Virus record (IMG/VR): IMGVR_UViG_3300030104_001062
Location: 1-53,834 of that record
DNA length: 53,834 nucleotides
Strand: one strand, 5' to 3'
DNA from: a virus
Taxonomy: Duplodnaviria; Caudoviricetes
The stretch's first letter is position 1. Every line of letters starts with the position of its first letter. Below are positions 3,343 through 53,100 of this stretch, in pieces. The translations under genes and the position numbers were made by a program. The notes below the pieces were generated by a model. That model made no database searches. It had not been told where the DNA came from and was given only the letters and a program-made list of their open reading frames with translations.

Positions 3343-3684
3343 ATGGCATTAAAATGGCCCGATAAAGACCCAGATGAAAGACTTGATTATACTGTTGATT
3401 GGTCAAGATATTTAGACACGTTAACAATATCAAGTGTTCAATGGACACACATTCAAGCAGACGGAACAGAATCTTCTGCGTTAAGTGCATCTAGCACAGT
3501 AAATGGAATGACAGTACAAGCCGTATCAAATACGACTACAACAGCTTCTATCGTTCTTAGTGGGGGAACAGTAAACACAGAAACAAAGTTTGTATGTCAA
3601 ATTACAACAAACACTAACTCAGCTACAGGTGCTGCTGTAGTTACCAAACGAGTAATTAACCTAACAGTTAGAGAGAGAGTCTAA
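3343..3684 (+). CDS. Putative fiber-tail adaptor protein
   Basis: KDPDERLDYTVDWS motif; lies between fiber and tail tube genes. Confidence 0.6.
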   Translation: MALKWPDKDPDERLDYTVDWSRYLDTLTISSVQWTHIQADGTESSALSASSTVNGMTVQAVSNTTTTASIVLSGGTVNTETKFVCQITTNTNSATGAAVVTKRVINLTVRERV

Positions 3685-4364
3685 TGGCATATAATTTTTT
3701 AGAACTTGTTAATGCAGTTGCACGAAGACTAAACGAAACAGAACTTACATCAAGTAACTTTGCCACAGCAACAGGATTTTATGCACAAATTAAAGATGCT
3801 GTAAATTCATCAATACGAGATTTAAATCTTCACCATGAATACTGGCCCTATAACCATAATTCAGAAAGTATTACATTAACAGCAGGAGTAACACGTTACC
3901 CCATTCCTGCTGATGCTAAATTTGTAGATTATAATAATTTTAGATTAGAAAGAGATACTAGCGTTGATATAGGTGCAGCTAGACGGTTAGAGCAAATTAC
4001 ATATAATGAATACATAGATACATATGTTGACCAAGAAAATGAAACAGATACATCAAAAGGTGCGGCAACAACTAACGTATTTAAAACGTTAGATAACTCT
4101 TTTGGGGTTGTGCCAATGCCTGATAAAGCGTATACTATAACATATGAGTATTTTAATTTTCCTGTAGATTTAAATTTATACACAGATGTTCCTAGTGTTC
4201 CAGAAAGATTTAAATTTGTAATTACAGATGGTGCTATGTACCACGCTTATATGTTTAGAGATAATATAGAAATGGGGCAACTCGCATTTAAAAAATTTGA
4301 AGATGGAATGAAATACATGCGTAAACTACTTGTTAATGAAAACGTTTATTTGAGAGCTACATAA
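3684..4364 (+). CDS. Tail tubular protein A-like head-tail adaptor
   Basis: MAYNFLELVNAVARRLNE N-terminus; size and position before the nozzle gene. Confidence 0.7.
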   Translation: MAYNFLELVNAVARRLNETELTSSNFATATGFYAQIKDAVNSSIRDLNLHHEYWPYNHNSESITLTAGVTRYPIPADAKFVDYNNFRLERDTSVDIGAARRLEQITYNEYIDTYVDQENETDTSKGAATTNVFKTLDNSFGVVPMPDKAYTITYEYFNFPVDLNLYTDVPSVPERFKFVITDGAMYHAYMFRDNIEMGQLAFKKFEDGMKYMRKLLVNENVYLRAT

Positions 4365-6190
4365 TGCCTGATCGTTGGCAAACATATCCATTAGAGTTTA
4401 AAGGGGGTCTAATAACTAATCTATCCCCTCTACAGCATGGAACGGCTGCTCCCGGATCAGCACGAACACTAACTAACTTTGAACCATCTATTGAGGGTGG
4501 GTATAGAAGAATTGAAGGGTTTTCAAAGTATAACAGTAACGCTGTTACAGGAACAAGTGGGAGTGACTTATTAGGGTTGGGTCGTTTTAGAGGAAGCACA
4601 ATAGTAGCTAGACCACAAGACTCTGGAGCACCACGATTGTACCTTGTAACAACGTCAGGGTCACATACAGATTTATCTACATCTGTTCAATTACATTCTA
4701 GTGCAAGTCGTGTAAGATTTGCAAACTTTAATTTTGATGGGGATGCAGATTTAATTATTGTAGATGGGTTTGGGTACCCTTGTGTATTAGTAGGGACAGC
4801 AGCAGGTAATTTAAGTAAGTTATCAACTCCTTCAGATATATCCGGGGCATCCCACGTTACAATATTTAAAAACTCTGTACTAATTGGAAATAATGATAAA
4901 TTAGTTTTTTCTGCTCCTTATTCAGCAACAGATTATACACCTGCAAATGGTGGTGGAGTAATTAATGTTGGAGATGACATTACTGCTTTACAGGTATTTA
5001 GAGAGCAGCTTATAATATTTTGTGAAAAAAGCATTTTTAGATTAACAGGATCTAGTTTTGCTGATTTTGCGTTGCAACCAATCGCTACTGGAGTGGGTTG
5101 CTTAAATGGAGATACAGTACAAGAAGTTGGTGGAGATATAGTTTTCTTATCTCAAGATAGTATTCGATCTTTATCTGCAACAGATAAGATAGGAGATTTT
5201 AATTTAGCTTCTGCATCAAAAACTATACAGGATGATTTTTCGGCTTTTATTCAAAACCACCAATTTTTTTCAAGTCTAGTTATCCCATCAAAAACACAAT
5301 ACAGAATATTTGGCTATTCAGCTAGTATTACAGAAGCTAACGCTCAAGGATTTATAGGTACTCAAGTTATAGGGCAAAGTGGTGTAGAATTTCATTGGGC
5401 AAAAACTAGGGGCATACAAGCAAGAGTTACTGCAGACTCTATTGATTCTGGAAAAGAAACTGCTGTATTTGGAAATAAAGATGGTTATATTTATAAAATG
5501 GAAGAAGGTAACGATTTTGATGGGGGTAACATAGAAGCTACTTTTGCAACTCCTTACTTTCCTTTAACTGATCCACGAACACGAAAAACAATCTACAAAG
5601 CAATATTATACACAGATCCTCAAGGATCATTTAGCACAGATTTTAATTTAAAGTTTGATCTTGCAGAAGCTGGAATTATACAACCTAGTACAATATCACT
5701 TTCTAATGCATCGTCATCAGGGGGAATTAGTTTGTATGGGTCAACAAGTGCAAGATATGCACATGGAGGATTACTTAACGGTGCTAAGTCTAGTGGTGAT
5801 AGTTCAGGAATAGCTGTAGACACTTTATCTTTTGGAGCAGGAGATGGGTTAATCGTAGGTGATCAATTTAAATTTGATAATAATAGTCAAGTTTATGAAA
5901 TAACAGCTATTAGTAGTGCTGTTTCTGGTAGTGCAGGTAGTGCAACAGCTACAGTAACAGTTAACCCTAATTTAGTTGAAGACGTAGCTAACAACCAACA
6001 TTTTAGTTTTGTAAAATTTGCAGGTGGCTTATCCTCAGTTTTTAGTGGAGATAGTCTTAAAAAAGTATTTGAAACACAAACAGTAGGATCAGGATTTTTA
6101 GTATCCATGTCTTTTTCGGCAGATTCAACTGATCCACCCTATTCTTTTGATGCAGCGTCAATTGAGTATGGTCAATATGGGAGAAGATAA
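4364..6190 (+). CDS. Tail tubular protein B / nozzle (beta-propeller)
   Basis: FKGGL, NFEPSIEGGYRRI and GDIVFLS motifs; synteny. Confidence 0.75.
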   Translation: MPDRWQTYPLEFKGGLITNLSPLQHGTAAPGSARTLTNFEPSIEGGYRRIEGFSKYNSNAVTGTSGSDLLGLGRFRGSTIVARPQDSGAPRLYLVTTSGSHTDLSTSVQLHSSASRVRFANFNFDGDADLIIVDGFGYPCVLVGTAAGNLSKLSTPSDISGASHVTIFKNSVLIGNNDKLVFSAPYSATDYTPANGGGVINVGDDITALQVFREQLIIFCEKSIFRLTGSSFADFALQPIATGVGCLNGDTVQEVGGDIVFLSQDSIRSLSATDKIGDFNLASASKTIQDDFSAFIQNHQFFSSLVIPSKTQYRIFGYSASITEANAQGFIGTQVIGQSGVEFHWAKTRGIQARVTADSIDSGKETAVFGNKDGYIYKMEEGNDFDGGNIEATFATPYFPLTDPRTRKTIYKAILYTDPQGSFSTDFNLKFDLAEAGIIQPSTISLSNASSSGGISLYGSTSARYAHGGLLNGAKSSGDSSGIAVDTLSFGAGDGLIVGDQFKFDNNSQVYEITAISSAVSGSAGSATATVTVNPNLVEDVANNQHFSFVKFAGGLSSVFSGDSLKKVFETQTVGSGFLVSMSFSADSTDPPYSFDAASIEYGQYGRR

Positions 6191-6192
6191 AA

Positions 6193-9866: not shown

Positions 9867-11732
9867 GTGGCTCAAAAGTTTAACACAAACATTAGTGGTA
9901 ATGTAAGTGGAGGTAGTGTAAAAACAGATGCTGAAAAAGAAGCCGATCAAGAAGCTCGTGCAAGAGAAGCACAAGCCAAAACCAAAGCCAAAGTTGATGC
10001 AGAAGCAAAAAAGAAAGTTGATGCAGAAGCAAAAAAGAAAGCTGATGCAGAAGCAAAGAAACAAAAACAAAAAAGTGTACAGGAAGTAAACATGGCAGAA
10101 ATAGAAAACGCACCAAGTCCTTTAGACGAAGCACAATATGCAAAGATGCAGGAATTAGCTAACGCTAACCCTAATTTAAGCATAAAAGAACTTGTTGCAA
10201 AATCAGATGAATTTATTGGTACAGATCCTACGACTATGAAAAACTATCTGGTCAATGCAGGAGTAGACATTGAAGCAGACACTGTTGGTGGTGTGGACAT
10301 GGTTAGTTTAAAAAATGCTACTTCTGCTCCTGTTGTTGATCCTAATCTTGTTTCTGATAAAGTTAAAGATAAAAATATTGAAGCGGCCAAAGGAGAAGTA
10401 TCTAAAGAGGTTGGCGAAGAACAAATTAATCTCAACCAAGAACAACTATACGCAAAAGAACAAACAGGCGAAGCTGCACAAATTACAGGTAACACAAAAC
10501 GAGAAGTTACTGAGGGTGAGTTTGTAACTGGAGCAACAGCTACTCCAGAAGAATTATCCGAAATAAATATGGTTGCCGCAACGGCTGAACCATCAGATCG
10601 TGCAACTACACGAGGGCAACTTGCTCTTATGGAAAAAGATTTTGAAGGGGGCAAAATACCTTCATACGTTGCAGGACAAATGAGAATGGCAAATGCTGTG
10701 ATGCAACGAAGAGGTATATCAGCATCTTCAATTGCTGGGCAAGCTGTTATGCAAGCAGCTCTAGAAGGCAGTGTACAAATAGCGATGGCTGATGCTAAAG
10801 CATTTCAAACATTTGAATTAGCTAGTCTTAGTAACAGACAACAATCGGCTGTTCTTAACGCACAGATACGTGCTAAGATACTTGGTCAAGAACTTACTAA
10901 TAGACAACAGGCTGCCGTTATAAATGCCGCAAGAGTAACTGAAGCAAACAATATGACATTTACTGCTGAACAACGTGTTATGTTGGAAAACTCAAAGATG
11001 ATGCAACAGATGAACCTTGCTAATCTTAACACTAAACAACAAACAGCCCTTGCTAATGCAGCTACATTTGCAAATATGGAAAAAGCTAATTTAGATGCAC
11101 GGATGACTGCACAAGTTACAAATGCACAAAACTTTTTAAAAATGGATTTAGCAAATTTAAGTAATGAGCAACAAGCTCGTACTCTTGAATATCAATCAAC
11201 TATTCAAGCTTTATTTTCAGATCAGGCCGCAACAAATGCTGCTGAACAGTTTAACGCAAAAAGCCAAATGCAAGTTGATCAATTTTATACAGAGTTAAAC
11301 ACACAGATTGAACAAGCTAATGCAACACGAAATGCAAACATGGAACAGTTTAACGTAAATCAAAAAAATGCAATGAAGCAATACAATGAAACAATGAAAT
11401 TAAACAGAGAAAAGTTTAATGTAAATGCTCGTTTACAAATTGATCAATCAAATGTAGAATGGAGAAGACAGATAAATACAGCAAATACGGCTGAACAAAA
11501 CGCTACAAATAGATTAGTGTATCAATCTCTTACAAATCAAACAACACAAGCACAAAACAATTTGTGGAATTTTTATAGAGATTCGGCTTCGTGGTTAATG
11601 ACAACAGCCGAAAATAGAGAACAAAGATCTCACGATGCTGCTATGTTGGCCGCCCAACTATCAGGAAATAAAGATTTGTATAGAACAGAGTTTTTAAACA
11701 ACTTGCTTTTAGAAGTAGGTATGAATTTATAG
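9867..11732 (+). CDS. Internal virion (ejection) protein, Q/A/N-rich
   Basis: Long helical ORF; GTG 9867 follows the upstream stop (alternative ATG 10092); 24-bp KKKVDAEA repeats. Confidence 0.7.
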   Translation: MAQKFNTNISGNVSGGSVKTDAEKEADQEARAREAQAKTKAKVDAEAKKKVDAEAKKKADAEAKKQKQKSVQEVNMAEIENAPSPLDEAQYAKMQELANANPNLSIKELVAKSDEFIGTDPTTMKNYLVNAGVDIEADTVGGVDMVSLKNATSAPVVDPNLVSDKVKDKNIEAAKGEVSKEVGEEQINLNQEQLYAKEQTGEAAQITGNTKREVTEGEFVTGATATPEELSEINMVAATAEPSDRATTRGQLALMEKDFEGGKIPSYVAGQMRMANAVMQRRGISASSIAGQAVMQAALEGSVQIAMADAKAFQTFELASLSNRQQSAVLNAQIRAKILGQELTNRQQAAVINAARVTEANNMTFTAEQRVMLENSKMMQQMNLANLNTKQQTALANAATFANMEKANLDARMTAQVTNAQNFLKMDLANLSNEQQARTLEYQSTIQALFSDQAATNAAEQFNAKSQMQVDQFYTELNTQIEQANATRNANMEQFNVNQKNAMKQYNETMKLNREKFNVNARLQIDQSNVEWRRQINTANTAEQNATNRLVYQSLTNQTTQAQNNLWNFYRDSASWLMTTAENREQRSHDAAMLAAQLSGNKDLYRTEFLNNLLLEVGMNL

Positions 11733-18800: not shown

Positions 18801-20696
18801 TTTAGTCCTGCTTTTATGTTACACTACAGTAATGAAATACAAAAAACTGCTGGCAACCCAGTTCTTCCTTTTAATTTAGGGTTTGAAGAATCAGCCCAAA
18901 TTAAATCTGCTTTAACACGAATACGAAATTCATATGAGTTTCAAGCACAGAATGGAAATACAGCAGCTGGAGCTAGAGCGAGAGCATACGCTGAGTATAC
19001 AAATGCGGCCAGAAATCTTTTTAAAAATTTTAAAAGTCCAAAAGGAATAACTTTAACAGGGCTTGATGAGAAGTTAGCTAAAGCTGATGCAATTTACAAA
19101 ACAGAGTATGCAGATAAATTTTTTGATAATGACCTTGCAAAAAACTTAACGTATGAAAGAAAATTTGGATACAGAGATCCAGTTAAAGAAAATGAATTTA
19201 TATCACAACCAACAACAGCTCATCCAGAAGCAAAAAAATATGTAAAGAATAGTAATACTTGGTTTAACCTCAACAAATTATCTACTGACTCAGATGCATC
19301 TTCAAATTTAAATGCTGATATTTTAAGAATGTTTGGTAAAAGAAATGAAAAAGGTCAAAATGTAATATCGGCAGAAGATAACCCAGATTTAGTAGCTCTT
19401 AGTAAGCATTTAACAACAGAGTGGATTTTAAAACAACTTACAAAACGTAACGTAAATGGTAAGCTTAGTGATGTTGCAGTCAACACTCCTGAATTTATGG
19501 CTAAATTAGAGAACATACAAAGGGCTTTTGCTACAGGCGATGGCAAATATTTGTTTTCAGTTGATGAGTTTTTTGATATAAATGGTCCATTTGGTTTTCA
19601 TGCTGCACGACAAAATCAAAAAGAAATAGACTCTATAGCAACTGATAGTGAAGTTATTTTAAAAAATGCATTTGATAAAAGTAAAGCAAATAAAGACCAC
19701 TTAGCACGTATAGATAAAATAAATGAAAATCAAGCTTTAATATTCAATGCTAAAAAAGAATGGAAATTAGCTAGTGATATATACGATGATCTAGTCATAA
19801 TGAGAAACACAGATATAGGGGAATTTAAAAAAGCTTTTATAGCTAATAATAAAGGAGTAAAAGCCGAAGAGGTTGATGGTGCTTTACGTTATATAATAGC
19901 AAAACATATAAATGAAGAAGTCTTTCAAGTATCAAAAGAATTAGAGGTATTTCCAGCAGATCAGTTTGGTCAATTAGCAAGACAAGTACAAGATGTTGAT
20001 TTTGAAAAACTTAGAGAAATGATAACTAAAGATGAAAGAGGTCCTGCATTAAAAGAAATATTAGGAGATAATCATTACAATGCCCTATTAAGCATTAGCC
20101 GATATATGGAATTAACAAAGATGCGACAGGATAAAATTCAAGTAATGGGTATCCCACGATCGTTATCTGTTGAAAGTTGGATTAGTAGAATATACAGTAT
20201 TAATCGTGGTGTTGTTTCTCCTAAATATGTTGCAACAGAAGCAGCATTGCAACAAGCAAGGAAGAAAAATATAAGTACGCTTGAAGCTATTATTGCAGAT
20301 CCAGATGCTGCAGAACTTTTTGCAAAAATTATATTAGAGCAAAAACCATTAGAAGAACAATTAGGAAAAAGATTGTTTGGAGCAATAGCTTTTCATTTTA
20401 GTTACTCAGCTTCTAGAGTTGGGTGGAAAGATTATATTATAGAGGGTGGAGATGCACAATTACAAAAAGTAAAATACCAAGCAGCTCAAGTTATTCCAGA
20501 TGCTATTCAGCCTGAATTTTTAACACCTACCAATGCTATGGATAAACAGATGAAAGAACTACAGTTTCTTAAAACTAGAAATCCTAAAAAGCTTTGGGGA
20601 AAAGGAACACCATTTAGTAATTATGCTGCATGGAAAAAAGCACAACCAGAATACAGAACTTCAACATATTTAAATAATAAACAATATACAAATTAA
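15855..20696 (+). CDS. Largest internal virion protein
   Basis: 1613 aa; last large gene of the arm; analogous to T7 gp16. Confidence 0.65.
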   Translation: MADNITNPFDEFDEKDTVVTRNPFDNLDSEQKSSVADKLEQKIKKSTLKREESLLKEPIEKIAGTAKSTVFDATGDVYTKVAPQSLQYKTAIEYDERGQPIVKEGRVIPEVSIFEEPTVKQYFNDPKKEKELNNVLKGYVTASGTAIYWDEKQKKEFPTAREFLKDAEQLSPRSLLFAEPFEAYDLDYTDVIKKYTELPEDKKGFQLSRLQFSDYKQEPFTIGSMLPGTERFGGALVKDTVDYVKDTMGVKDTQTLAVIAKMTESGEIAGRRAISGLYTTVKFLTADAAVFMARTTQSLMNYNETRQFVPYSSDIERKIFNDRWLAGSAADFRKRLLVAGISPIYATQEFAEKLLAFSPTIADRGLKVAIDVKGFTAALGMKMTSSANAAFIDFTNFVKARPKMFKMDADGKMVKGTYEEAITAYKKQRGEYADNLMGRFLDNLQTDKLVRGFELNLAKLPVEKRKIVQYNRKLLAELTQERDRLKNLEKINTYNKRYGLEGKLPANYDKDIIDINRAIAQQRIATSVAESTSGTAKWVRELNSADAGFVLYGTSLGQLNQNLNGDPLFGEFAGYTYAMGELLSKGTRFEKFPFIVAGSVKAGARAVENLTLKTLELYTGKGTFLDPKLTAKGSEDIIDLANTVKTLSPQAQTYVEERVAGFKIVMDDLISKDVNPDVLKPTLAKLSGLAAVEAFEMGVRSEMYASRTFDSDVIASLQDATNTKKEIVNELKKLSMGFTDNMPEAGMADLVTKFRVNISDALKSIEKDIKESDILYKEYKNLQLNFLADEYVSPVKGEDSARIVKKINDITDGEPLPISMLDTVTVMTKDKKTRLIQELNTEAIRSETEKLTTKIQSSIKLNKNIEFKENDDVTRAVTERVLESQREILQINGSRGYKIMDNDPKLGLAKTDATNLFNSVFDDVTSISGKARKFNEATMKESDSSGLIKIFDAAANKMLLNKLTPEEIADLRGAMKADGYDRFSPAFMLHYSNEIQKTAGNPVLPFNLGFEESAQIKSALTRIRNSYEFQAQNGNTAAGARARAYAEYTNAARNLFKNFKSPKGITLTGLDEKLAKADAIYKTEYADKFFDNDLAKNLTYERKFGYRDPVKENEFISQPTTAHPEAKKYVKNSNTWFNLNKLSTDSDASSNLNADILRMFGKRNEKGQNVISAEDNPDLVALSKHLTTEWILKQLTKRNVNGKLSDVAVNTPEFMAKLENIQRAFATGDGKYLFSVDEFFDINGPFGFHAARQNQKEIDSIATDSEVILKNAFDKSKANKDHLARIDKINENQALIFNAKKEWKLASDIYDDLVIMRNTDIGEFKKAFIANNKGVKAEEVDGALRYIIAKHINEEVFQVSKELEVFPADQFGQLARQVQDVDFEKLREMITKDERGPALKEILGDNHYNALLSISRYMELTKMRQDKIQVMGIPRSLSVESWISRIYSINRGVVSPKYVATEAALQQARKKNISTLEAIIADPDAAELFAKIILEQKPLEEQLGKRLFGAIAFHFSYSASRVGWKDYIIEGGDAQLQKVKYQAAQVIPDAIQPEFLTPTNAMDKQMKELQFLKTRNPKKLWGKGTPFSNYAAWKKAQPEYRTSTYLNNKQYTN

Positions 20697-20707: not shown

Positions 20708-20902
20708 ATGAAGACTTATTATAACGGCCCAAGACAAAGAATGAACTATGGTGGTATGAGTATGGGAACAACTCTTGGTAGCACTATGGGACAAAAAAAT
20801 CAAATGGCATCTAGTCGTATGCAAACAATGAAAGCAAACAACCCAATGAACCAACAACCCACGATGATGATGTATGGTGGTAAAAAATCTAAGAAAAAGT
20901 AG
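20708..20902 (+). CDS. Small Met-rich basic protein with two MxYGG motifs
   Basis: GGAG RBS, ATG 20708. Confidence 0.7.
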   Translation: MKTYYNGPRQRMNYGGMSMGTTLGSTMGQKNQMASSRMQTMKANNPMNQQPTMMMYGGKKSKKK

Positions 20903-21896: not shown

Positions 21897-23827
21897 GCAA
21901 CTTCTCCAATATCAACAACTTCACAAGCATCTGCAGTACACGCTAATTCTCGACTTCCTGTTGTGCTATCCTCTTTTTCATATACGGATAATTTGCTAAA
22001 GTCAATTTCTTTTGGTGTCTTTAATAACATAGATGCATACTCTCCTCTTCCACAATCTTGATAAGGTGCTTGTTGATAGACGTGATCATCATATGGTAAG
22101 AAAGATATACCTGATATTATATCAAAATTATCATATACCCACGCACCTACATTCATCCACTCATCTTCTTTCACTGTTACAGTTATGGATGGTTTGTGTT
22201 CACACCACGTTTCTGCATATATCTTCCACAATTCTAGTTGTTCAATAGCTGATATATTTTTTCGTACAATAGCATTTTTTGGTGACATTGTAGGAAATGA
22301 AAATATTGTTGTGTACTCAGGTTTTACTACATCAGGTTCGTTTATTACTCCCTCATCTTTCATAAGTTTTGTAAGAGGATCATTGTTATCTGCTCTTACT
22401 GTTCGTATGTAATACTCACTATGTCTTGCATGTATGCCACTTGCAGAGTTAGTCAGTTGCGACACAGTACCTGAGGGTTTGACACAAGTTATCGCTGCAC
22501 TCTGAGGGATACCCAGTAGTTTTGCATACTCTTGATTTGTAAGGACTGCTTCTTCCTTCATTTCTTTTAGCCATCGTGTAGAGTCTGTAGTTTTTGATAA
22601 AACTGGATGATCCATGATACCAGTTAATGATACTCCTAATAATCTTTCTTCCTCTGTGTTCTGTTTCCATACCTTCCTCAAGTATTTAAAGTTAGTTAAA
22701 GTTGATTGAAATGTTCCAAGTATCGTAGCCATACGAACTTTCTTCTTTAGTGTTTGCAGTGTATCATCACTACGAACTATAACTTCAGACAAGTTGCAAA
22801 ACTGATAAGGTCTAAGTATTATTTCAGAACATGGGTTTGTACCCCATGCATGTCCTGTTTCTCTTCTTCCGTTTTTTGCAACTTGCTTGTCTGATGCTTC
22901 ACGATTAAACATACCACGCTCACCAGACTTTGATTCATACAGAGATACCCATTCACGCATAAACGTACCCATCTCTGGTTTATTCTTGTAGGATACACTA
23001 TTATTCGCTAAAGAACGTTGTTTTTCTGTGTCATACCAATTACCAGATTTAGCGTGTCGCATTTGATCATCACCAAGATTAGATAAACTAATTAGTGCAG
23101 ATCTTCTAACCCCACCAACTACAACTACTTGCCCAACCTTGCACATAATATCGTGACATTCTATTGGATATAGTTTGCGGCCACTAGCTTTTTTAAACGT
23201 ATTTACTGTAAAATCAAATAGCTCAACTAATGGTTCAGCACCAGATGCTCTACCCCCCATAACTTTTAGTTTTGCTCCTGCAGGGCGAACTAACGACACA
23301 TCCCATGTAGGTATCTGTCCAGAGTAAAGTAATGCGACTAGCTCTTTATAGGCTTTTGCCCATCCCATTCGACTATCTGCAACGCTTATAATTGTATTGC
23401 TTCGATGAAAGTTTTCAGCAATAATTGGTAGTTTGTCTACATTTTCTCGTTCTACTGAGAACCCAACACCTGTCCCACACATAAGTATATACATGCACTC
23501 ATCAAAAGCTCTAGGATGATCAACAGGAATATAACTACAGTTGTATCCACAGATGTTATCTCTGGTTAGTGCTTCCCCGGCAGTCATCATTGCTCGCATA
23601 GATGGCATTATCTTTAGTTCTAATATGTGGTTTCTAAGTGACGAATACAAGCCTATGTTGTGTCCATCTATATCAAAGTTATGCTCATTTTTTATATGAC
23701 TTGATACGTAACTTAAATATCTGTCTACTGTTTCATCCCAATCTTCTCGCCTTTTATCTTCTTCGTTCCATCGTGCGTATCGTGATTTATGTATAAAATC
23801 TTGATAAGGTGTTGGTAAATTTTTCAT
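21893..23827 (-). CDS. nrdJ: Class II adenosylcobalamin-dependent ribonucleotide reductase (monomeric RTPR type)
   Basis: YNCS, GGVRRSA, TNPCSEI, TCVKPSGTVS and C-terminal ELACTADACE; no small-subunit gene seen. Confidence 0.92.
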   Translation of the reverse strand: MKNLPTPYQDFIHKSRYARWNEEDKRREDWDETVDRYLSYVSSHIKNEHNFDIDGHNIGLYSSLRNHILELKIMPSMRAMMTAGEALTRDNICGYNCSYIPVDHPRAFDECMYILMCGTGVGFSVERENVDKLPIIAENFHRSNTIISVADSRMGWAKAYKELVALLYSGQIPTWDVSLVRPAGAKLKVMGGRASGAEPLVELFDFTVNTFKKASGRKLYPIECHDIMCKVGQVVVVGGVRRSALISLSNLGDDQMRHAKSGNWYDTEKQRSLANNSVSYKNKPEMGTFMREWVSLYESKSGERGMFNREASDKQVAKNGRRETGHAWGTNPCSEIILRPYQFCNLSEVIVRSDDTLQTLKKKVRMATILGTFQSTLTNFKYLRKVWKQNTEEERLLGVSLTGIMDHPVLSKTTDSTRWLKEMKEEAVLTNQEYAKLLGIPQSAAITCVKPSGTVSQLTNSASGIHARHSEYYIRTVRADNNDPLTKLMKDEGVINEPDVVKPEYTTIFSFPTMSPKNAIVRKNISAIEQLELWKIYAETWCEHKPSITVTVKEDEWMNVGAWVYDNFDIISGISFLPYDDHVYQQAPYQDCGRGEYASMLLKTPKEIDFSKLSVYEKEDSTTGSRELACTADACEVVDIGEVA

Positions 23828-24084
23828 GCCCTTTCATTTCCTTTCAGTTCTTGTTCCATTTTTATTTCTATTAATTTTTGCAGATACCATTCTGCTTTTT
23901 TTAAATCTTCTACGGCATTGTTCTTGTATCTGTATCTCCACAGATATTTAATTACTACTCCTTGTAGGTAATATTCAAACCCACTGTTTGTTGCTGATTC
24001 GATAGCATCAATACATTCTATTTTATTTTGATTGTAGTGGGGGGGTTGATTAACCATATCTTTCATTTTAAATTCATCTTTCAT
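23824..24084 (-). CDS. DUF3310 / T7 gp1.7-like nucleotide kinase family protein
   Basis: DMVNQPPHY..ECIDAI..KYLWRY..EDLKKAEWYL. Confidence 0.85.
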   Translation of the reverse strand: MKDEFKMKDMVNQPPHYNQNKIECIDAIESATNSGFEYYLQGVVIKYLWRYRYKNNAVEDLKKAEWYLQKLIEIKMEQELKGNERA

Positions 24085-28943: not shown

Positions 28944-29052
28944 ATTTTTTTTGTCTCTCTTTCTTTTTATCATACTTCTTTTTATCTGGCATTATTCTAC
29001 GTCTATTGTGTGCCATCATTAGTAGTCTAGCTATTGGGTTTATCTTTTGCAT
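28894..29052 (-). CDS. Small basic protein, 52 aa (NPIAR...PDKKKY), absent from the ORF track
   Basis: Manual translation MQKINPIARLLMMAHNRRRIMPDKKKYDKKKERQ..; fills the gap between HNH and exonuclease genes. Confidence 0.65.
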   Translation of the reverse strand: MQKINPIARLLMMAHNRRRIMPDKKKYDKKKERQKKYDLHDTRRRNNTQGED

Positions 29053-32339: not shown

Positions 32340-32535
32340 TCATTTTCATATATATGATCAGCACAAAGATTTGTCATTTCAAATCGTGGGTAAAACTAAC
32401 TTCATTAAATGGTTAAATGAATGTACGACTGAACGTTTAGTTGACTATGGTAGATATAAATACTTTACAACTTATTCAGAATTGAGTAAGTTCTTAAAAA
32501 GTAAAGGAAAGGATATAGATAATGAGAGTGTATAG
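32323..32535 (+). CDS. Early hypothetical protein
   Basis: GAGGAG RBS before ATG 32323. Confidence 0.6.
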   Translation: MPYLNNHFHIYDQHKDLSFQIVGKTNFIKWLNECTTERLVDYGRYKYFTTYSELSKFLKSKGKDIDNESV

Positions 32536-38277: not shown

Positions 38278-38679
38278 ATGAATTTATTACCAGAAAAACG
38301 CAAATCTACTAAGATTTCTGAAAAAGAAGAGCTTTTCTTACAAAACTTGTTTGAGAATGGCGGCCAAGTAGTCGCTGCAGCTGAAAATGCTGGGTACACG
38401 AAGGGTTCTGCAGGATATTTGCGAAGCAAATTAGCCGATGAGATCATAACACGGTCAAAGAACCTACTCGCTAGTGCTTCTGTAAAAGCTACCAACAGGT
38501 TAATTAGTATGATCGACACCCCACAAGTCGAAAGAGGGGATGATGTGCGTTTAAAGGCTGCTGAATCGCTGTTAAACAGAGTTGGGCTGGGTAGAGAGGA
38601 AACACATAACCATAATGTACAGGCATTACATGGAGTAGTATTGCTCCCACCTAAAAAAGGAATAGAAGTAAGTGGCTAA
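38278..38679 (+). CDS. terS: Terminase small subunit
   Basis: HTH AAENAGY, RLKAAESLLNRVG, VVLLPPK; directly upstream of terL. Confidence 0.85.
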   Translation: MNLLPEKRKSTKISEKEELFLQNLFENGGQVVAAAENAGYTKGSAGYLRSKLADEIITRSKNLLASASVKATNRLISMIDTPQVERGDDVRLKAAESLLNRVGLGREETHNHNVQALHGVVLLPPKKGIEVSG

Positions 38680-40339
38680 TAAACGTGGTCGCCCAAGAAA
38701 AGATCCTAATGCTCCGAAGGAATCTTATAACATTTCATCATTAGAACGAGCTAAAAGAGCAACTCGTAAAAAACTTGCAGCTGAAAGGCGACAAGCTAAC
38801 AAGGCTGCAAAGAAAGTACAGAAACACAGACAAAATGCTAAACGTATTGAAAACACTGCCAAGAACCTGTCTAACGGAACTTCAAAAGTTGTGGACTTGG
38901 GTGACGAACTCAATTCGTTACAACCTGTATCAGATCTGGTCGATGATCAAGAGATTATATTTAAACCTAATAATGGTCCTCAAGAAGAATTTCTATCTTC
39001 CTCTGAAGAAGATGTGTTATACGGTGGGGCTGCAGGAGGGGGCAAGTCTTTCGCTTTGCTTGTTGATCCTCTTCGTTATTGCCATAACCCTAATCATCGT
39101 GGTCTTCTCCTAAGAAGAACTCTTGATGAATTAACAGAACTAATAGACAAATCAAGACAACTATATACTAAAGCTTTTCCAAAAGCACACTTTAGAGAAT
39201 CAAAATCCACGTGGGTGTTCCCTTCTGGGGCAACGATGTGGTTTACTTATCTAGACAGAGACAAAGATGTTACTCGATTTCAGGGACAGGCTTTTAACTG
39301 GATAGGAATAGACGAAATAACACAATACCCCACACCATACGTGTGGGATTACTTGCGTTCAAGACTACGTACAACAGATGACGAACTAAGACCAAACATG
39401 TCTATGCGTTGTACTGGAAACCCCGGTGGAGTTGGAGGGTGGTGGATTAAGAAGATGTACATTGATCCACACGAATATAATAAACCTTTTCCAGCCACAG
39501 ATATAGAAACAAGAGAGCAGTTACTATACCCAGAGGGTCACGAGAAAGCAAGGCAACCGTTGTTCTACCGAAAGTTTATTCCTGCACGGTTGACCGATAA
39601 TCCCTATCTGATGCAAGATGGCAGATACGAAGCCATGCTCAGATCGCTCCCAGAAGTTGAACGGAAGAGACTTCTTGAAGGGGATTGGGATGTCGCAGAG
39701 GGAGCGGCCTTCCCAGAGTTTTCTAAACAGAAGCACGTTGTCGAGCCATTTGAAATGCCAACTAACTGGCCCAGAATACGTGCAGCGGATTATGGATACG
39801 CAAGTCCATCCTGTGTATTGTGGGGGGCTATAGATTGGGACAACAACATTTGGATCTATAAAGAACTCTACGTAAAGCAACACACAGCAGAGCAACTTGC
39901 TGACAAAATACTGGAGATGGAACAACTTGAACCCACACCACATTACTCTGTACTTGACTCATCGTGTTGGAACAAGACAGGGTTTGGTCCTTCAATTGCA
40001 GAGACTATGATGCGTTTGGGTGTGAGGTGGACACCATCCGATAGAAACAGGTTACAGGGTAAAATGGAAATACATAGACGATTAGCAGATAACCCATTGA
40101 CAAAGTTACCCAGAATCCGTATATTTAATACATGTAGTAACACAGTTAGACAACTTGCAGGAATACCGTTGTCGAAAAGTAATTCAGAAGATGTAGATAC
40201 AAAAGCAGAAGACCACGCATATGATGCGTTGCGTTATCTAGTAATGACTAGAACCAGTGGATATGCTTCAATACATAAAAGTCTACAGGGAATAAAAGAT
40301 CAAACATACCAACCAGTAAATAGTACATTTGGATATTAA
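38672..40339 (+). CDS. terL: Terminase large subunit
   Basis: YGGAAGGGKS, IGIDE, TGNPGG, ADYGY, DHAYDALRY. Confidence 0.95.
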   Translation: MANKRGRPRKDPNAPKESYNISSLERAKRATRKKLAAERRQANKAAKKVQKHRQNAKRIENTAKNLSNGTSKVVDLGDELNSLQPVSDLVDDQEIIFKPNNGPQEEFLSSSEEDVLYGGAAGGGKSFALLVDPLRYCHNPNHRGLLLRRTLDELTELIDKSRQLYTKAFPKAHFRESKSTWVFPSGATMWFTYLDRDKDVTRFQGQAFNWIGIDEITQYPTPYVWDYLRSRLRTTDDELRPNMSMRCTGNPGGVGGWWIKKMYIDPHEYNKPFPATDIETREQLLYPEGHEKARQPLFYRKFIPARLTDNPYLMQDGRYEAMLRSLPEVERKRLLEGDWDVAEGAAFPEFSKQKHVVEPFEMPTNWPRIRAADYGYASPSCVLWGAIDWDNNIWIYKELYVKQHTAEQLADKILEMEQLEPTPHYSVLDSSCWNKTGFGPSIAETMMRLGVRWTPSDRNRLQGKMEIHRRLADNPLTKLPRIRIFNTCSNTVRQLAGIPLSKSNSEDVDTKAEDHAYDALRYLVMTRTSGYASIHKSLQGIKDQTYQPVNSTFGY

Positions 40340-42213
40340 TGACTAAAGCTAGATTAAAAAAAGTTGATAATTTTTTAGAATTTCAAGAAAGGCTGTTTCC
40401 TGATGGAAATATTCCAACTCGTGAAGAAATTAAAAATCTTGTGCAAAGTGGGGATACCTCTGTAAGAACACATATTTTAAATAAAATGTATAGAGATGGA
40501 GTTCCAACAGATCCATTTCTTTTACTTGATGAAAGAGCAAAAGATTTTGCAAATAAATTTAATGATGCATTTGGTAAAAATACATTACAAACAGCTAAAA
40601 ACATTACAGGTGTTGTAAAAGATGTAGATAATGTACTTAAAAAAGGATTTACATTAGAAGATGATTTTATAACTGTCAAAGAAGCAGGAACATTTCCTGA
40701 AGCTGATAGAAAAGCTTTTGAAAACAGATATACTAGCACTGCAGATTTACCAAAAGGTGATGATATGCCTGTGCCAACTATAAAAGGTTCTAAAAAACTT
40801 GCAAGTGGTAAAGTTCCTAAAGGGTTATTAAAAACAGTATTGGAAGCAGTAGGAAGTATACCAGATGAAGTATTACGTGATGCCGCAATAGCAAGTTTAA
40901 TTGGGTACAGAGGAGCAGATCTTGTAGGATCTATGACAAATGAGGTCAATCCTTTAAGTGGAAATTTTGTAGCTTCTGAAGAATATCCTGCTAGACCATA
41001 TTACGATCCAAAAACAAATAGCTTAATAGCTCCAGATGTAGATATAGGAGCAGGTAGAAAAGGCAAAGATCCTCTTAAAGAGCTAGGACCTTTAATGCAA
41101 TCTATATTTGATAGAAGATTTGCAAATGCCGTAGATGGAGAATTATTTCCTGATATTGGAACAAAAGATATTTCAAATGCTTTAAATAAATATGTATTTC
41201 CAAAAATACCAAAAGAAGTATTAGCACATTTAAAGACACAACCAAGTGGCTACTCAGCTATGCGTAAAATATTTGCATCAGCCGTAGCGAATGATTTGAA
41301 CAAACCAGAAATTGCAGCTCAGTTGATGGGGCATGGAACAGGTGAATTAGGTGGGCAAAGTGTTTTAAATAAATTTTATGCTACGATTATTGATGAGGGA
41401 GGACTTCAAGCTAGAACAGATACGTTATTGCAACTTGAAAAGTTTATGGCTGATGCTTTAGGTGTAACGACTTCTGGAGAATTAGCAACTAGATTAAATT
41501 TAAAACTTGATAACCCTGATCTAAATATAACATATCCAGAGTTTGATATGGATAAACCTATACAAGGTCCTGAAGGTCAAAAGATACAGTTGAGCGAAGA
41601 AGAATTACAAGCTCAAGAACAAGAAAGAATTAAAGCTTCTCAAAAAAGAACACAGGATCAAGCTGTAGCTACTGCTGAAGGTGTTCAAAAAGAAGTGGGT
41701 ATATACAAAGGTATATCCAAAGAAGACATTGATGAAACAACTTCAAAGAAAGCGTTAGCTAAATTTAGTGAAAAAGAAAAAACAGCCGAGCTATTTAAAC
41801 AAAAAAAATTAGATGACAAAAAAACTAAACGAGATAATCTTTTTAAAAAGTTAGCAGAAATTTCAAAAAGAGATGGAATTAAAAGTGTAGCAGGATTAAT
41901 TACTGCAGGGACTGCTACAAAGATTGCGGCTGGAGTTTTGTCTGGTGGAACTGCTGCTCTACCTTTAGCGGCCGAAGCTGCGGCAGAAGTTGTACTTAGT
42001 CCTACTCCTACTGGAGAAAAAGCCATAGATCCTAAAATTGGATTAGAGTATACACAACCTGAAAGACCACCATCTGATTTTATGACTGAAGACGAAATTT
42101 TAAGTAGTTCAAGAATGGCTAAAGGGCAGTTTGAACCAGACATATTTCAACAAGCTAGATTAGATAGAAAAGCACAAAAAGATAAAATACAAAGTTTTTT
42201 AACAACCAACTAA
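40339..42213 (+). CDS. Tyrosine recombinase/integrase-fold protein with long C-terminal extension
   Basis: GYR191GADL, K241, S306AMR309K, LMGH332, Y347. Confidence 0.65.
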   Translation: MTKARLKKVDNFLEFQERLFPDGNIPTREEIKNLVQSGDTSVRTHILNKMYRDGVPTDPFLLLDERAKDFANKFNDAFGKNTLQTAKNITGVVKDVDNVLKKGFTLEDDFITVKEAGTFPEADRKAFENRYTSTADLPKGDDMPVPTIKGSKKLASGKVPKGLLKTVLEAVGSIPDEVLRDAAIASLIGYRGADLVGSMTNEVNPLSGNFVASEEYPARPYYDPKTNSLIAPDVDIGAGRKGKDPLKELGPLMQSIFDRRFANAVDGELFPDIGTKDISNALNKYVFPKIPKEVLAHLKTQPSGYSAMRKIFASAVANDLNKPEIAAQLMGHGTGELGGQSVLNKFYATIIDEGGLQARTDTLLQLEKFMADALGVTTSGELATRLNLKLDNPDLNITYPEFDMDKPIQGPEGQKIQLSEEELQAQEQERIKASQKRTQDQAVATAEGVQKEVGIYKGISKEDIDETTSKKALAKFSEKEKTAELFKQKKLDDKKTKRDNLFKKLAEISKRDGIKSVAGLITAGTATKIAAGVLSGGTAALPLAAEAAAEVVLSPTPTGEKAIDPKIGLEYTQPERPPSDFMTEDEILSSSRMAKGQFEPDIFQQARLDRKAQKDKIQSFLTTN

Positions 42214-46912: not shown

Positions 46913-46917
46913 AAAAC

Positions 46918-46997: not shown

Positions 46998-47879
46998 ATG
47001 GCAAAGAAACCAAGCGGCCACAGAGCTAATAAACACAATGATTCCTTTGGAACTATAAATGACGAAAACCTGTACAGAAACGCATACCGTAAAGACGTTT
47101 ACAAAGATGACGATGATGAACAGGAAGTAGAAGCATCCCCTGCAGAAGAAGCAGCTACGGTGCAACAAAATACAAGTTTCGTTGAGTCAAAACAATCTGA
47201 CGAAGTTGACTTTAAAAAAAGATATGATGACCTTAAAAAGCATTATGACCAAAAACTTGATACATGGAAGTCTGAAAAAAGCGAATTAGAAAACGCTATA
47301 AAGAACTCCGTAGCTCAAAATACTAATGTTCAAATGCCTAAAACTCCAGAAGAATTGGAGCAATTTAAGACTGAGTATCCAGATGTGTATGCAGTTGTAC
47401 AAACTGTTGCCCATCAACAAGCTGAAGAAAAATCAAAAGATCTTCATAAAGAGTTGGAAACAATTCGTGAACGTGAAAGGAATTTGGTTGTTCAGAAAGC
47501 TTACGAAGAACTTCTAAGAAAACATTCTGATTTTGATGAAATTAGAAAAGACAAAAACTTTCTAAGTTGGTTGGAAACTCAACCTGCATCTCTTGCAGAT
47601 GGTATCTATAAAAACAACACTGATGCATTATGGGCATCAAGAGTTATAGACCTTTACAAAGCAGATGCTGGCATAGGTAAAAAATCAAAAGCAACAAAGC
47701 CAACAGCGGCATCAGCGATAACCCCTGCACAAGCAAGGGAAGTAAACGTTAATTCCAATGGTGGCAAACGTGTATGGAAAGCTTCTGAAATTGCTAAACT
47801 AAAAAGTCAAGAATTTGAACGTTTTGAAAAAGATATTGATATAGCTAGAATAGAAGGTCGTATTGATTTTAATTCTTAA
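46998..47879 (+). CDS. Capsid scaffolding protein
   Basis: FKKRYDDLKKHYD coiled coil; C-terminal IDIARIEGRI; directly upstream of MCP. Confidence 0.85.
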   Translation: MAKKPSGHRANKHNDSFGTINDENLYRNAYRKDVYKDDDDEQEVEASPAEEAATVQQNTSFVESKQSDEVDFKKRYDDLKKHYDQKLDTWKSEKSELENAIKNSVAQNTNVQMPKTPEELEQFKTEYPDVYAVVQTVAHQQAEEKSKDLHKELETIRERERNLVVQKAYEELLRKHSDFDEIRKDKNFLSWLETQPASLADGIYKNNTDALWASRVIDLYKADAGIGKKSKATKPTAASAITPAQAREVNVNSNGGKRVWKASEIAKLKSQEFERFEKDIDIARIEGRIDFNS

Positions 47880-49414: not shown

Positions 49415-49428
49415 AACAAGGAAGTTAA

Positions 49429-50058: not shown

Positions 50059-50064
50059 CTTAAA

Positions 50065-50244: not shown

Positions 50245-50286
50245 AAAAGAAGAAGATAAAGTTCCAAAATATTTAAAGGGAAAATA

Positions 50287-51037: not shown

Positions 51038-51420
51038 TGTTTCAAGCATTGATAGGACCTATATCTGAACTTGCAGGATCGTTTATGCAAGGACAAATTA
51101 ATAAACAAAAAGCAAAAGCTACATTAGCACAAACTAAAGCTGAAGCAGAAGCAGAGATAATGAAAACTGCGGCCACACATGATTCAAAGTGGGAAATCAT
51201 TATGGCACAAGGCACTCAAAACAGTTTTAAAGATGAACTGGTTACAATCGTTATACTGATTCCAACAATTTTAGTATTTATTCCCGGAATGGAAGATGTG
51301 GTTAAGAATGGCTTTGCTAGACTTAACGAGTTGCCAGAGTGGTATACTTACTTGTTGTTTTTAACAGTCTCTGCTGCGTTAGGCATAAGAGGACTAGATA
51401 AATTTAAAGGTAAAAAATGA
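51037..51420 (+). CDS. Putative holin (GTA 3TM-holin-like)
   Basis: SFKDELVT, LPEWY, LGIRG; TM segments; near the endolysin. Confidence 0.65.
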   Translation: MFQALIGPISELAGSFMQGQINKQKAKATLAQTKAEAEAEIMKTAATHDSKWEIIMAQGTQNSFKDELVTIVILIPTILVFIPGMEDVVKNGFARLNELPEWYTYLLFLTVSAALGIRGLDKFKGKK

Positions 51421-51817: not shown

Positions 51818-51823
51818 TGAACT

Positions 51824-52072
51824 ATGGAAGGCATATTACAATATTGGGAACAACTAATATTTTTTCTAGGTGCTTTAGTTGTAGCTGTTAAGTTACACAC
51901 TGAAGTAACTACATTAAGAAAAGATGTTGATAAATTAGAAGAAGATTGTAAAAGTGCTAATGAAAAAATACAAACTAATTTTGTAAGTTCTGTAAGAACT
52001 GAAAGTGCTGTAAAAGAAACAGAAAAAAAGATAGAGTCTTTATTTATATTACATAATAAAAAGGAACAATAG
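51824..52072 (+). CDS. TM + coiled-coil protein
   Basis: Sequence pattern; lysis-region context. Confidence 0.6.
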   Translation: MEGILQYWEQLIFFLGALVVAVKLHTEVTTLRKDVDKLEEDCKSANEKIQTNFVSSVRTESAVKETEKKIESLFILHNKKEQ

Positions 52073-52530
52073 TGGAAACAATAATAGATAGATTACGTGT
52101 AGAATTAGAACAAGATGAGGGTTGCAAATATCACATATATTTAGATCACTTAGGTTTACCTACGGCAGGTATTGGACATTTGCTTAAAGGCACAGATCCA
52201 GAATACAATAAATCTGTAGGCACAGTTATAAGTAAAGAACGAGTGGATGAGTGGTTTGAACAAGACATACAAACTACACTTAATGATTGCAAAAAAGTAT
52301 TTGATGATTGGGATTCCATGAATGAGGAAGTAAGACTAATATGTTGCAATATGATGTTTAATCTAGGCTACCCAAGATTTTGCAAATTTAAGCTTATGAT
52401 ACAGGCTATAAAAGATGGTGATTACATCGAAGCAGCGAATCAAATGAAAGATTCAAGATGGTACAAACAAGTAACAAACAGGGCAGACAGACTAATAAGC
52501 CGAATGAAAGCTGTACCTTTACAAAAATAG
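52072..52530 (+). CDS. Endolysin, GH24 T4-type lysozyme
   Basis: DEG..YLDHLGLPTAGIGH (E/D/T triad), NMMFNLG, DSRWYKQV..RA. Confidence 0.9.
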   Translation: METIIDRLRVELEQDEGCKYHIYLDHLGLPTAGIGHLLKGTDPEYNKSVGTVISKERVDEWFEQDIQTTLNDCKKVFDDWDSMNEEVRLICCNMMFNLGYPRFCKFKLMIQAIKDGDYIEAANQMKDSRWYKQVTNRADRLISRMKAVPLQK

Positions 52531-52620
52531 AACTTATTAAACAAAAAGATAGGGAGAGACACAAACTAATATTGTCTCAATATTTTAAACCAAGAGACAA
52601 AAAATTTAAAGGGTATACAC

Positions 52621-53100
52621 ATGATTGATCCGATCACGTTGTCCGCTGCTGTTAGTGGAGCAACGGCCGCCTATAACGGCATAAAAAAAGCCATTATGAT
52701 GGGTAAAGAAATTGAAGATTTAGGATCACAGTTATCTACATGGATGTCTGCTGTAAGCGATGTAGATAACATTCACAAAAATGCAAATAGCCCTTCAACG
52801 TTTGATAGACTATTTAACGGCTCAATTGAACAAGTTGCAATGGAGTCTTTCGCAAGTAAGAAGAAACTTGCAAAACAAAGAGAAGAACTTAAAAATTTCT
52901 TGGTGGCACACTACGGAACACAAGCATGGGATGATTTACTACGTGAAGAAGGTCGTATAAGACGTGTTAGAAAAGAAATTGTATATGCTAGAGAAGAAAA
53001 AAACAGACAAATAAGAGACTACACAATTATGGGTATAGCTTCTTTAGTTGGTTTTAGTGCTTTAGGGTGGATGCTCTGGATCGTAAGTCGTTCTATCTAG
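52621..53100 (+). CDS. Membrane-associated conserved phage protein
   Basis: MIDPITL..IKKAI..GKEIED; C-terminal TM. Confidence 0.7.
   Translation: MIDPITLSAAVSGATAAYNGIKKAIMMGKEIEDLGSQLSTWMSAVSDVDNIHKNANSPSTFDRLFNGSIEQVAMESFASKKKLAKQREELKNFLVAHYGTQAWDDLLREEGRIRRVRKEIVYAREEKNRQIRDYTIMGIASLVGFSALGWMLWIVSRSI

Follow-up and report, generated by a model that had tools for sequence, protein, structure and literature searches.

The virus record IMGVR_UViG_3300030104_001062 of IMG/VR (53,834 bp, GC content 35.0%; this whole stretch is called the window hereafter) carries the four-base site GGCC in two sequence contexts only. Exact counting gave 17 copies, 13 of them in GCGGCC or its reverse complement GGCCGC and four in GGCCC, with no other context and no WGGCCW (W, A or T; S, G or C; Y, C or T; R, A or G; N, any base). 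Comparable context rules govern other short GC-rich sites that the window avoids, and they recur in related phages, among which the individual sites turn over. The account that we favour, with moderate confidence drawn from these patterns, is that several restriction enzymes have purged their sites from this lineage and that the surviving copies are either forced by the encoded protein or nested in five-base motifs that would be methylated.

The count confirms the original prediction for this DNA, which had listed by eye 17 GGCC, 13 as GCGGCC/GGCCGC and 4 as GGCCC, without WGGCCW. Its positions match as well: apparent offsets of 2 nt are due to hexamer starts, and 13/13 GCGGCC hexamers lie where it had placed them. 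The GGCC tetramers start at 3356, 3844, 10385, 11225, 11648, 19007, 20726, 23179, 24948, 26969, 38362, 39706, 39768, 41970, 47016, 51171 and 52665, in the following contexts:

3356..3360, plus strand: GGCCC in a Trp-Pro pair (AAA TGG CCC GAT), in gene 3343..3684 for a Gp77-like tail adaptor
3844..3848, plus strand: GGCCC in a Trp-Pro pair (TAC TGG CCC TAT), in gene 3684..4364 for an SU10-type adaptor
10383..10388, plus strand: GCGGCC in Ala-Ala (GCG GCC)
11225..11230, minus strand: GGCCGC on the plus strand (CAG GCC GCA, Gln-Ala-Ala)
11648..11653, minus strand: GGCCGC on the plus strand (TTG GCC GCC, Leu-Ala-Ala)
19005..19010, plus strand: GCGGCC in Ala-Ala (GCG GCC), in the gene for a 1613-aa protein
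20726..20730, plus strand: GGCCC in Gly-Pro (GGC CCA), where GGNCC is forced and GGCC is chosen
23177..23182, plus strand: GCGGCC (sense AGT GGC CGC), within the ribonucleotide reductase gene of the minus strand; the protein does not require it
24948..24953, minus strand: GGCCGC on the plus strand, intergenic
26969..26974, minus strand: GGCCGC on the plus strand, sense GCG GCC (Ala-Ala), in the minus-strand DNA polymerase gene
38360..38365, plus strand: GCGGCC (GGC GGC CAA, Gly-Gly-Gln), not forced
39704..39709, plus strand: GCGGCC in Ala-Ala, in the terminase large subunit gene
39768..39772, plus strand: GGCCC in a Trp-Pro pair (AAC TGG CCC AGA), in the terminase gene
41968..41973, plus strand: GCGGCC in Ala-Ala (GCG GCC GAA)
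47014..47019, plus strand: GCGGCC (AGC GGC CAC, Ser-Gly-His), not forced
51169..51174, plus strand: GCGGCC in Ala-Ala (GCG GCC)
52665..52670, minus strand: GGCCGC on the plus strand (ACG GCC GCC, Thr-Ala-Ala)

The GC-flanked sites are not forced by the protein, Ala-Ala being writable as GCA GCA, and four of them lie in other frames or outside genes (AGT GGC CGC, GGC GGC CAA, AGC GGC CAC and the intergenic copy). The commonest surviving hexamer is CGGCCA (8/17), always with a preceding G.

In 100 dinucleotide shuffles of the window, GGCC occurred 53.2 times on average and at least 17 times in every shuffle; GCGGCC averaged 2.1 and peaked at 6, as compared with the 13 observed. Synonymous codons were also shuffled, with 200 shuffles under each of two schemes on a model of 61 genes, and this gave 31.3 ± 4.9 GGCC (17 observed) and 2.3 ± 1.1 GCGGCC (maximum 8; 13 observed). 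The original prediction had proposed k-mer counts against a codon-shuffled null as its check, and the outcome agrees with it: WGGCCW was expected 16.2 times (minimum 8) and found 0 times, and GGCC outside GCGGCC or GGSCC was expected 21.2 ± 4.3 times (minimum 10 in 200) and also found 0 times. The permitted contexts hold about 32% of the GGCC in the codon shuffles, which puts the odds of 17/17 at about 0.32^17, or about 4e-9.

Relatives were collected by three scans of viral contigs, with the polymerase, the terminase and a 608-aa structural protein as queries, and these gave 240 loci. Among the genomes compared, G000 is the window, G001 and G002 are complete relative genomes, and G005 is a complete relative of 55,430 bp.

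Other short sites are avoided in the window. GCGC, CGCG and CCWGG are absent (24.4, 12.9 and 18.5 in codon shuffles), and both GGCC and CCGG are about 3-fold below composition. The window thus shows restriction-site avoidance against composition- and codon-preserving nulls alike, and so do G001 and G002. All 15 CCGG lie in CCSGG (CCCGG or CCGGG), a third permitted context, which means that another mark would be required. GCGG/CCGC occurs 30 times, against about 65 expected, and overlaps a GCNGC in 30/30 cases, 28 of them as GCGGC and two as GCAGCGG, in which no C follows:

39782..39788, plus strand: GCAGCGG, GCGG without a following C, overlapping GCNGC
52643..52649, minus strand: GCAGCGG, GCGG without a following C, overlapping GCNGC

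There is no avoidance of GCNGC itself, which occurs 117 times in the window and 116 times in codon shuffles. It stays at expectation because Ala-Ala (GCN GCN) forces it, and the window has 105 Ala-Ala pairs where 98 are expected. GGSCC is near its neutral frequency in G000-G002 (4, 7 and 8 observed, 8-9 expected), and GGWCC is not significantly below the codon shuffles (z about -1.1). An avoidance of GGNCC, first suggested by the count of Gly-Pro pairs (14 against 36.7 expected), was dropped: Gly-Pro and Pro-Gly also stand at 0.5-0.6 of expectation in relatives without the bans.

GCNGC emerged as a protective context from an unbiased scan of 4-mers as well. In G000-G002 pooled, the survivors overlapped GCNGC in 120/121 cases for GCGG, 3/3 for GCGC and 3/4 for CGCG, where the null fractions were 0.28, 0.10 and 0.10. 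The survivors thus overlap a second motif, itself unavoided, well beyond chance. For wider counts we defined a ban clade by a GC content below 0.40 and a combined GCGC and CGCG count under 3 per 10 kb (for the GGCC split, 56 loci totalling 525 kb with the window among them; in the later counts, 60 sequences). In this clade, the unique GCGC survivors were 4/4 GCGCWGC and the unique CGCG survivors 3/5 GCCGCGGC, against a background overlap of 18-19% for both. In GCCGCGGC, GCNGC overlaps CGCG from either side, so that both CGCG strands would be methylated. Once five loci with free GCGG were set aside, GCGG with neither a following C nor a GCNGC overlap was found in just 5 unique contexts; GCWGCGG had 16 unique contexts in the whole clade, not split by locus. 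Five geometries in four banned motifs therefore point to one five-base motif, GCNGC. These GCGG/CCGC, GCGC and CGCG survivors corroborate the GCNGC half of the original prediction, which had named GCNGC and GGNCC as the permitted contexts; both contexts hold in the window and in its relatives.

The rule recurs beyond the window. The 23 loci with at least 72% polymerase identity contain 35 GGCC, namely 34 of the GCGGCC type, 1 of the GGSCC type and 0 others; in the same loci CCGG lies in CCSGG in 22/22 cases and GCGG in GCGGC in 42/42. Loci at 66% polymerase identity or less have a GC content of 39-49% and no such rule, and in 57 distant loci C follows GCGG in just 32%. After removal of duplicate local contexts and of sites beside locus ends, the 56 ban-clade loci have 126 unique GGCC, of which 67 are of the GCGGCC type, 58 of the GGSCC type and 1 is neither (125/126 obey). 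The corresponding splits are 13, 6 and 0 in G001 and 14, 7 and 0 in G002, GCGGCC accounting for 40/57 GGCC sites across G000-G002. CCGG lies in CCSGG in 21/21 and 23/23 cases, and GCGG overlaps GCNGC in 35/36 and 55/55, in G001 and G002, respectively. The sites themselves turn over: 13 GGCC of the window align to G001, where only 5 are GGCC, and G001 has 9 aligned GGCC missing from the window, all lineage-specific sites following the rule. Five loci (L121, L123, L135, L152 and L166) keep the GGCC and CCGG rules and leave GCGG free; the pressures are therefore separable, as distinct enzymes would make them. Of note, three distant loci also show the GCNGC-overlap and CCSGG rules (L275, L287 and L316; 10/10, 10/10 and 5/5 survivors overlapping GCNGC). 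L316 has about 40% polymerase identity, and L275 and L287 have 58-61% terminase identity over partial alignments. In relatives of intermediate distance (63-66% polymerase identity) both rules are missing, and the distribution is therefore polyphyletic, tracking ecology or an enzyme rather than phage phylogeny.

Certain amino acid pairs force these sites, and the codons chosen for them follow the same contexts. Trp-Pro always contains GGCC, and Pro-Gly always contains CCNGG. The window proteome model has three Trp-Pro pairs, all written TGG CCC, as the original prediction had noted. Among 37 unique Trp-Pro pairs of the ban clade (codon-choice counts use unique 30-nt contexts), 19 are TGG CCC and 18 are TGG CCG, with the CCG followed by C in 18/18; CCA and CCT are used 0 times despite their 83% share of Pro codons. 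Relatives outside the clade use CCT in 137/248. Since CCWGG is banned, Pro-Gly must be written CCS GGN, which holds CCGG, and such forced pairs explain 12/15 CCGG of the window. The 13 GGWCC of the window are all Gly-Pro pairs. In the ban clade, Gly before a C-initial codon other than Pro is written GGC in 16/1,032 cases, 16/16 of them GC-flanked, as compared with an 11% share of GGC among Gly codons. Gly-Pro uses GGS in 30/212 (14%) against a codon share of 22%, and GGCC within GGSCC is therefore nearly neutral. CCGG copies not forced by Pro-Gly lie in CCSGG in 17/17 cases, where the background is 23%. GCS is the first Ala-Ala codon in 24% of the pairs in the window and in 37% in relatives outside the clade. 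GCGGCC looks enriched because the bans suppress G/C-ending codons nearly everywhere, so that the null under-predicts them where they are free.

CCWGG is rare well beyond the clade. The 240 relatives hold 3 copies in 2.32 Mb (3,247 expected by composition), including relatives that lack the C5 methyltransferase gene, and the first 50 kb of Puniceispirillum phage HMO-2011 hold 0, where 62 are expected. Among other cultured relatives, Pelagibacter phage HTVC033P has 54 CCWGG and 0 CCGG, and Roseobacter phage CRP-603 has 33 and 1; a proposed absence of CCWGG from the whole phage group was withdrawn on these counts. The mirror-image numbers indicate that Pro-Gly is a forced choice between two restriction targets, which lineages have resolved in opposite ways. 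GATC is absent from G005 (204 by composition) and from HMO-2011 (188) and occurs 178 times in the window, a contrast that points to differing host restriction landscapes inside one phage group.

We propose that several host enzymes with short GC-rich sites (GGCC, CCGG, CCGC/GCGG, GCGC, CGCG, CCWGG and some 6-mers) would exert selection on the lineage, which would drop each copy removable through a synonymous or an amino acid change. The copies that remain would be of two kinds. Some would be dictated by the protein, Trp-Pro giving GGCC and Pro-Gly giving CCSGG once CCWGG is banned; others would be nested in the unavoided five-base palindromes GCNGC, GGNCC (seen as GGSCC) and CCSGG. Most probably, virion DNA is methylated at these three motifs: an overlapped four-base site would then have a methylated cytosine in one strand or in both, which would prevent cutting. 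Protein-forced sites are steered into a shielding motif through codon choice (TGG CCC, or TGG CCG followed by C). The marks might be written by host modification enzymes common in the host population, by a phage C5 methyltransferase, or by both. That the shielding mark is methylation, and who would write it, we infer from the motif statistics; the case for GGNCC methylation comes from only one banned motif. Enzymes of the M.Fnu4HI type (G-m5C-NGC; m5C, 5-methylcytosine) and of the M.Sau96I type (GGN-m5C-C) set m5C on the inner C of GGCC, and HaeIII is sensitive to GG-m5C-C. By our own reasoning, modification of any GCNGC cytosine puts one modified C inside each overlapped site. An argument that purging would be pointless while forced sites remain was rejected, because escape from restriction is multiplicative per site.

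Several points weigh against this account. Its support for methylation consists of sequence statistics throughout, and it needs up to three separate marks, where the phage has one recognisable methyltransferase. The gene model was built from simple open reading frame (ORF) heuristics. The definition of the ban clade is circular for GCGC and CGCG, although not for the context rules, and the loci are kin from which duplicates were dropped by local context only, so that the counts overstate independence. GCWGC is mildly depleted against the codon shuffles in G000-G002 (z -2.4 to -9.1) and GCSGC is enriched (z +3.5 to +9.2), which would not be expected were all GCNGC fully neutral; we attribute the skew to the suppression of G/C-ending codons everywhere save in shielded contexts. 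Singly overlapped CGCGGC is not spared, 0/28 GCGGC of the window having a preceding C. The remaining points concern relatives that carry the methyltransferase. G005, whose enzyme is 60% identical in the recognition domain, has 1 GCGGCC among 21 GGCC (about 9 estimated by composition), writes Trp-Pro as TGG CCT in 5/5 cases and is depleted in Ala-Ala (72 against 107 expected), with GCS GCN in 50/72, away from GCWGC. From this lack of sparing, the use of TGG CCT and the depletion and shift in Ala-Ala, the DNA of G005 is apparently not protected at GCNGC. Across 79 loci bearing the enzyme family, sparing does not follow similarity of the recognition domain: L287 (45%, 38%) and L316 (51%, 45%) have divergent domains and show the rule, and L269 (71%, 64%) has a similar domain and depleted GCGG, yet only 2/7 of its survivors overlap GCNGC.

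The strongest alternative on the question of the writer is that the phage itself writes the marks. A single gene would then neutralise several host enzymes, with GCNGC as its target and possibly, by way of another recognition unit, GGNCC as well. The gene concerned is the following:

32522..33667, plus strand: C5 cytosine DNA methyltransferase of 381 aa, the one DNA methyltransferase that could be recognised, and a candidate for having written some of the marks at most

Its product matches PF00145 (E 1.9e-36; 126.6 bits, cut-off 22) and has the catalytic motifs GGSPCQ and LENV and the GNG motif as LGNGF, which place it among the C5 methyltransferases. Six-frame searches found this one C5 enzyme and no PF01555 or PF02086 enzyme. 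A Pfam scan of 60 translated ORFs (59/61 modelled genes plus the alternative short ORF 23824..24081; ORFs 53392..53538 and 53581..53763 lay outside it) found no second methyltransferase. In favour of phage authorship, the gene is present and 87-95% identical in all clade members covering the region (L003, L011, L089, L262, G001 and G002; 89% for the whole enzyme in G001 and 91% in G002), and the recognition domain is its best-conserved part over G000, G001 and G002 (92-95%). GCNGC cannot be purged where Ala-Ala forces it, which would leave an enzyme as the sole remedy. Outside the clade, L275 has the closest recognition domain (73%, 74%), and this locus obeys the GCNGC rule without exception; no such rules are seen in five distant relatives that lack the gene. 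Against it stand the relatives just described: the recognition domains of G005, G004 and L101 are 56-60% identical, and neither G005 nor L101 (59-60%) shows GCGGCC sparing, G005 even selecting against GCWGC. A single enzyme would also have to write up to three marks. Specificity could not be read from homologues: tblastn matches in annotated phages did not exceed 41% identity and bore generic names only, a search of 5.8 billion proteins gave no specificity name among the 120 matches listed, and in the PDB only the catalytic cores of M.HhaI, M.HaeIII and DNMT3 were matched. The AlphaFold model of the recognition domain was unusable (residues 171-245 and 277-304 with a predicted local distance difference test score, pLDDT, below 50). 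We therefore hold phage authorship to be possible but rather unlikely. As regards the original prediction, which had coupled host restriction with shielding by phage methylation, the strong purifying selection on GGCC, of the restriction-avoidance type, stands; that the phage writes the shield is not established, given the single methyltransferase and the lack of sparing in G005. The marks may be of host origin, of phage origin or of both, and the evidence does not separate these cases.

The variable region of the methyltransferase shows two similar LTT-containing units, GKSPTLTTMQ and GKSGALTTVQ, within an internal repeat at residues about 226-243 and 280-297 (GKSPTLTTMQGG and GKSGALTTVQKD). 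As read off the alignment with G005, conservation is about 70% for the first unit with its flanks and about 40% for the second. The repeat could represent two recognition units, which would favour phage authorship. That the 381-aa protein is a compact multispecific enzyme, whose two LTT units write GCNGC and GGNCC and perhaps CCSGG, the genome being sculpted around its own enzyme's motifs, appears improbable. Two related ideas were given up: across the 79 loci, avoidance was heterogeneous and no motif tracked the family, so that no permitted context could be tied to it, and a CCSGG-specific enzyme, suggested by G005 sharing only the CCSGG rule, was dropped since several phages with the family purge CCGG, CCSGG included.

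We considered the possibility that there is no shield at all and that the host enzymes recognise sites that are longer or degenerate (WGGCCW, YGGCCR, RCCGGY, WCCGGW or similar), forced pairs taking the least harmful option. The forced Pro-Gly and Gly-Pro pairs of the window and the mirror choice of HTVC033P fit this idea, and GGSCC contexts would evade WGGCCW and YGGCCR alike. Yet CGGCCA, the commonest survivor, fits YGGCCR and occurs only after G, a context of 7-8 bp that no such enzyme supplies, and AGGCCG/CGGCCT, which fall outside both enzyme types, are found only with a GC flank. Furthermore, one GCNGC overlap is common to four banned motifs, and the unforced sites comprise 16 GC-flanked GGC-C and 17 CCSGG with 0 unflanked equivalents. 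We regard this explanation as very unlikely.

Least plausible, to the point of being nearly negligible, is a mutational, repair or translational bias (very-short-patch-like repair or a codon-pair preference) that makes GCGGCC and CCSGG directly: the roughly 5-fold excess of GCGGCC over the codon-shuffle null in three genomes (13, 13 and 14 against 2.4-2.6) and the frequency of the codon pair GCG GCC in the window (6 against 0.3 expected) agree with it, but the sites lie in three reading frames, on both strands and at one intergenic spot, so that a translational cause fails, the excess of the pair shrinks arithmetically to 6 against about 2.1 when the higher frequency of G/C-ending codons in Ala-Ala is allowed for, and the total absence of other contexts and the overlap rule shared by GCGG, GCGC and CGCG are left unexplained.

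The favoured account, purging combined with overlapping methylation, joins two known phenomena. Avoidance of restriction sites in phage genomes was reportedly described by Sharp in 1986, Karlin in 1992 and Rocha in 2001. As in those cases, short palindromes are under-represented or absent here (0 GCGC, CGCG and CCWGG); unlike them, the survivors are confined to defined overlapping motifs and forced sites are steered by codon choice. The finding is a real effect that extends restriction-site avoidance, with strong statistics and a proposed mechanism. Cross-protection through overlapping methylation, as in Dam/Dcm overlap blocking and methylase-limited digestion, is familiar in vitro as a nuisance or a tool. 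The geometry is the same here: GCNGC or GGNCC methylation over GGCC would put a methyl-cytosine inside GGCC on at least one strand. Our literature search found no description of survivors confined to overlapping motifs, or of such overlap as an evolutionary footprint deciding which sites a phage can retain. A term search of the principal survey of how prokaryotic viruses avoid restriction sites found neither 'overlap' nor 'flank' (PMC6286503).

Among phage enzymes, the multispecific C5 methyltransferases of the Bacillus phages SPbeta and phi3T (GGCC and GCNGC for both), SPR and rho11s carry several recognition units in one variable region. They resemble the enzyme of the window in being phage-borne C5 enzymes, and they protect against GGCC-type restriction and include GCNGC. 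They methylate GGCC itself, however, so that GGCC need not be avoided, whereas the window purges GGCC and would be protected only through overlap; moreover, the 381-aa enzyme has no detectable similarity to them outside the catalytic core. HMO-2011, HTVC033P and the CRP phages share gene content with the window, but the cultured members examined lack the rules, their GGCC sites splitting into GCGGCC-type, GGSCC-type and other as 4, 15 and 26 in HMO-2011, 0, 8 and 11 in HTVC033P and 1, 22 and 31 in CRP-603. A survey of marine viral methylomes reports CCNGG, GGWCC and GGHCC motifs, mostly as 4-methylcytosine (m4C) and in myovirus-like genomes, and states that sequencing of single molecules in real time (SMRT) misses m5C (PMC8919816). 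In another report, a GCNGC 5mC methyltransferase of a marine bacterium is characterised (PMC10734518).

Avoidance and phage or host methylation, usually seen as alternative anti-restriction strategies, appear to interlock in this phage. The protected five-base motifs would dictate which sequence can be retained, down to the Pro codon after each Trp, and the site-forcing pairs Ala-Ala (GCNGC), Pro-Gly (CCNGG), Gly-Pro (GGNCC) and Trp-Pro (GGCC) would constrain the evolution of phage proteins and codons. Should the marks be confirmed, survivor contexts would allow m5C motifs, to which long-read methylome surveys are largely blind, to be read from the raw sequence of uncultured viruses, and would also reveal the set of restriction specificities that a virus faces. 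If the multispecific enzyme were real, one small gene would defeat at least five host restriction specificities, and the specificity of a viral enzyme could be read from the survivor contexts by sequence alone, in uncultured phages too.

Further words are scarce in the window beyond the four-base bans. Among 6-bp palindromes, GAATTC and TTCGAA are absent (9.5 and 10.2 in codon shuffles), and AGTACT (1), CTTAAG (1), ACTAGT (2) and GATATC (3) are nearly so, about 18 of each being expected by composition; CTGCAG (27) and TTGCAA (51) are several-fold over composition. In G000-G002 pooled, non-palindromic 4-mers are depleted against codon shuffles, namely CCTC/GAGG (418 vs 593; z -10.9), CGTC/GACG (293 vs 456; z -10.5), CGCC/GGCG (100 vs 213) and ACCG/CGGT (205 vs 329), and TCGA and GTAC are partly depleted.

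The window, 98% complete by CheckV estimate, is by its sequence a near-complete, uncultured marine podovirus of the HMO-2011 type. The assignment is based on its DNA polymerase, which is 45.4% identical to that of HTVC033P and 38-41% identical to those of the Roseobacter CRP phages and HMO-2011 (94-99% of the query aligned, over all matches), and the window shares core replication and structural genes with these phages. A Pfam scan identified a family A DNA polymerase with a separate 3'-5' exonuclease ORF, a DnaB-like helicase, a Toprim primase, endonuclease I, a DUF3310 protein, the terminase large subunit, ribonucleotide reductase, a Gp77-like adaptor and an SU10-type adaptor and portal; a lysozyme and a 2OG-Fe(II) oxygenase are likewise encoded. 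A host search among contigs of prokaryote genomes returned only a 60%-identical phage-like contig in a metagenome-assembled genome and an unrelated match, from which no host could be inferred. The exonuclease ORF (28365..28973) and the polymerase ORF (26864..28432), both on the minus strand, overlap by 68 nt in different frames, an arrangement also present in G001, G002 and G005, and HMO-2011, HTVC033P and CRP-603 have an annotated single polymerase gene of about 2.04 kb. The two-ORF layout reflects a true split of the gene or, alternatively, a programmed frameshift.

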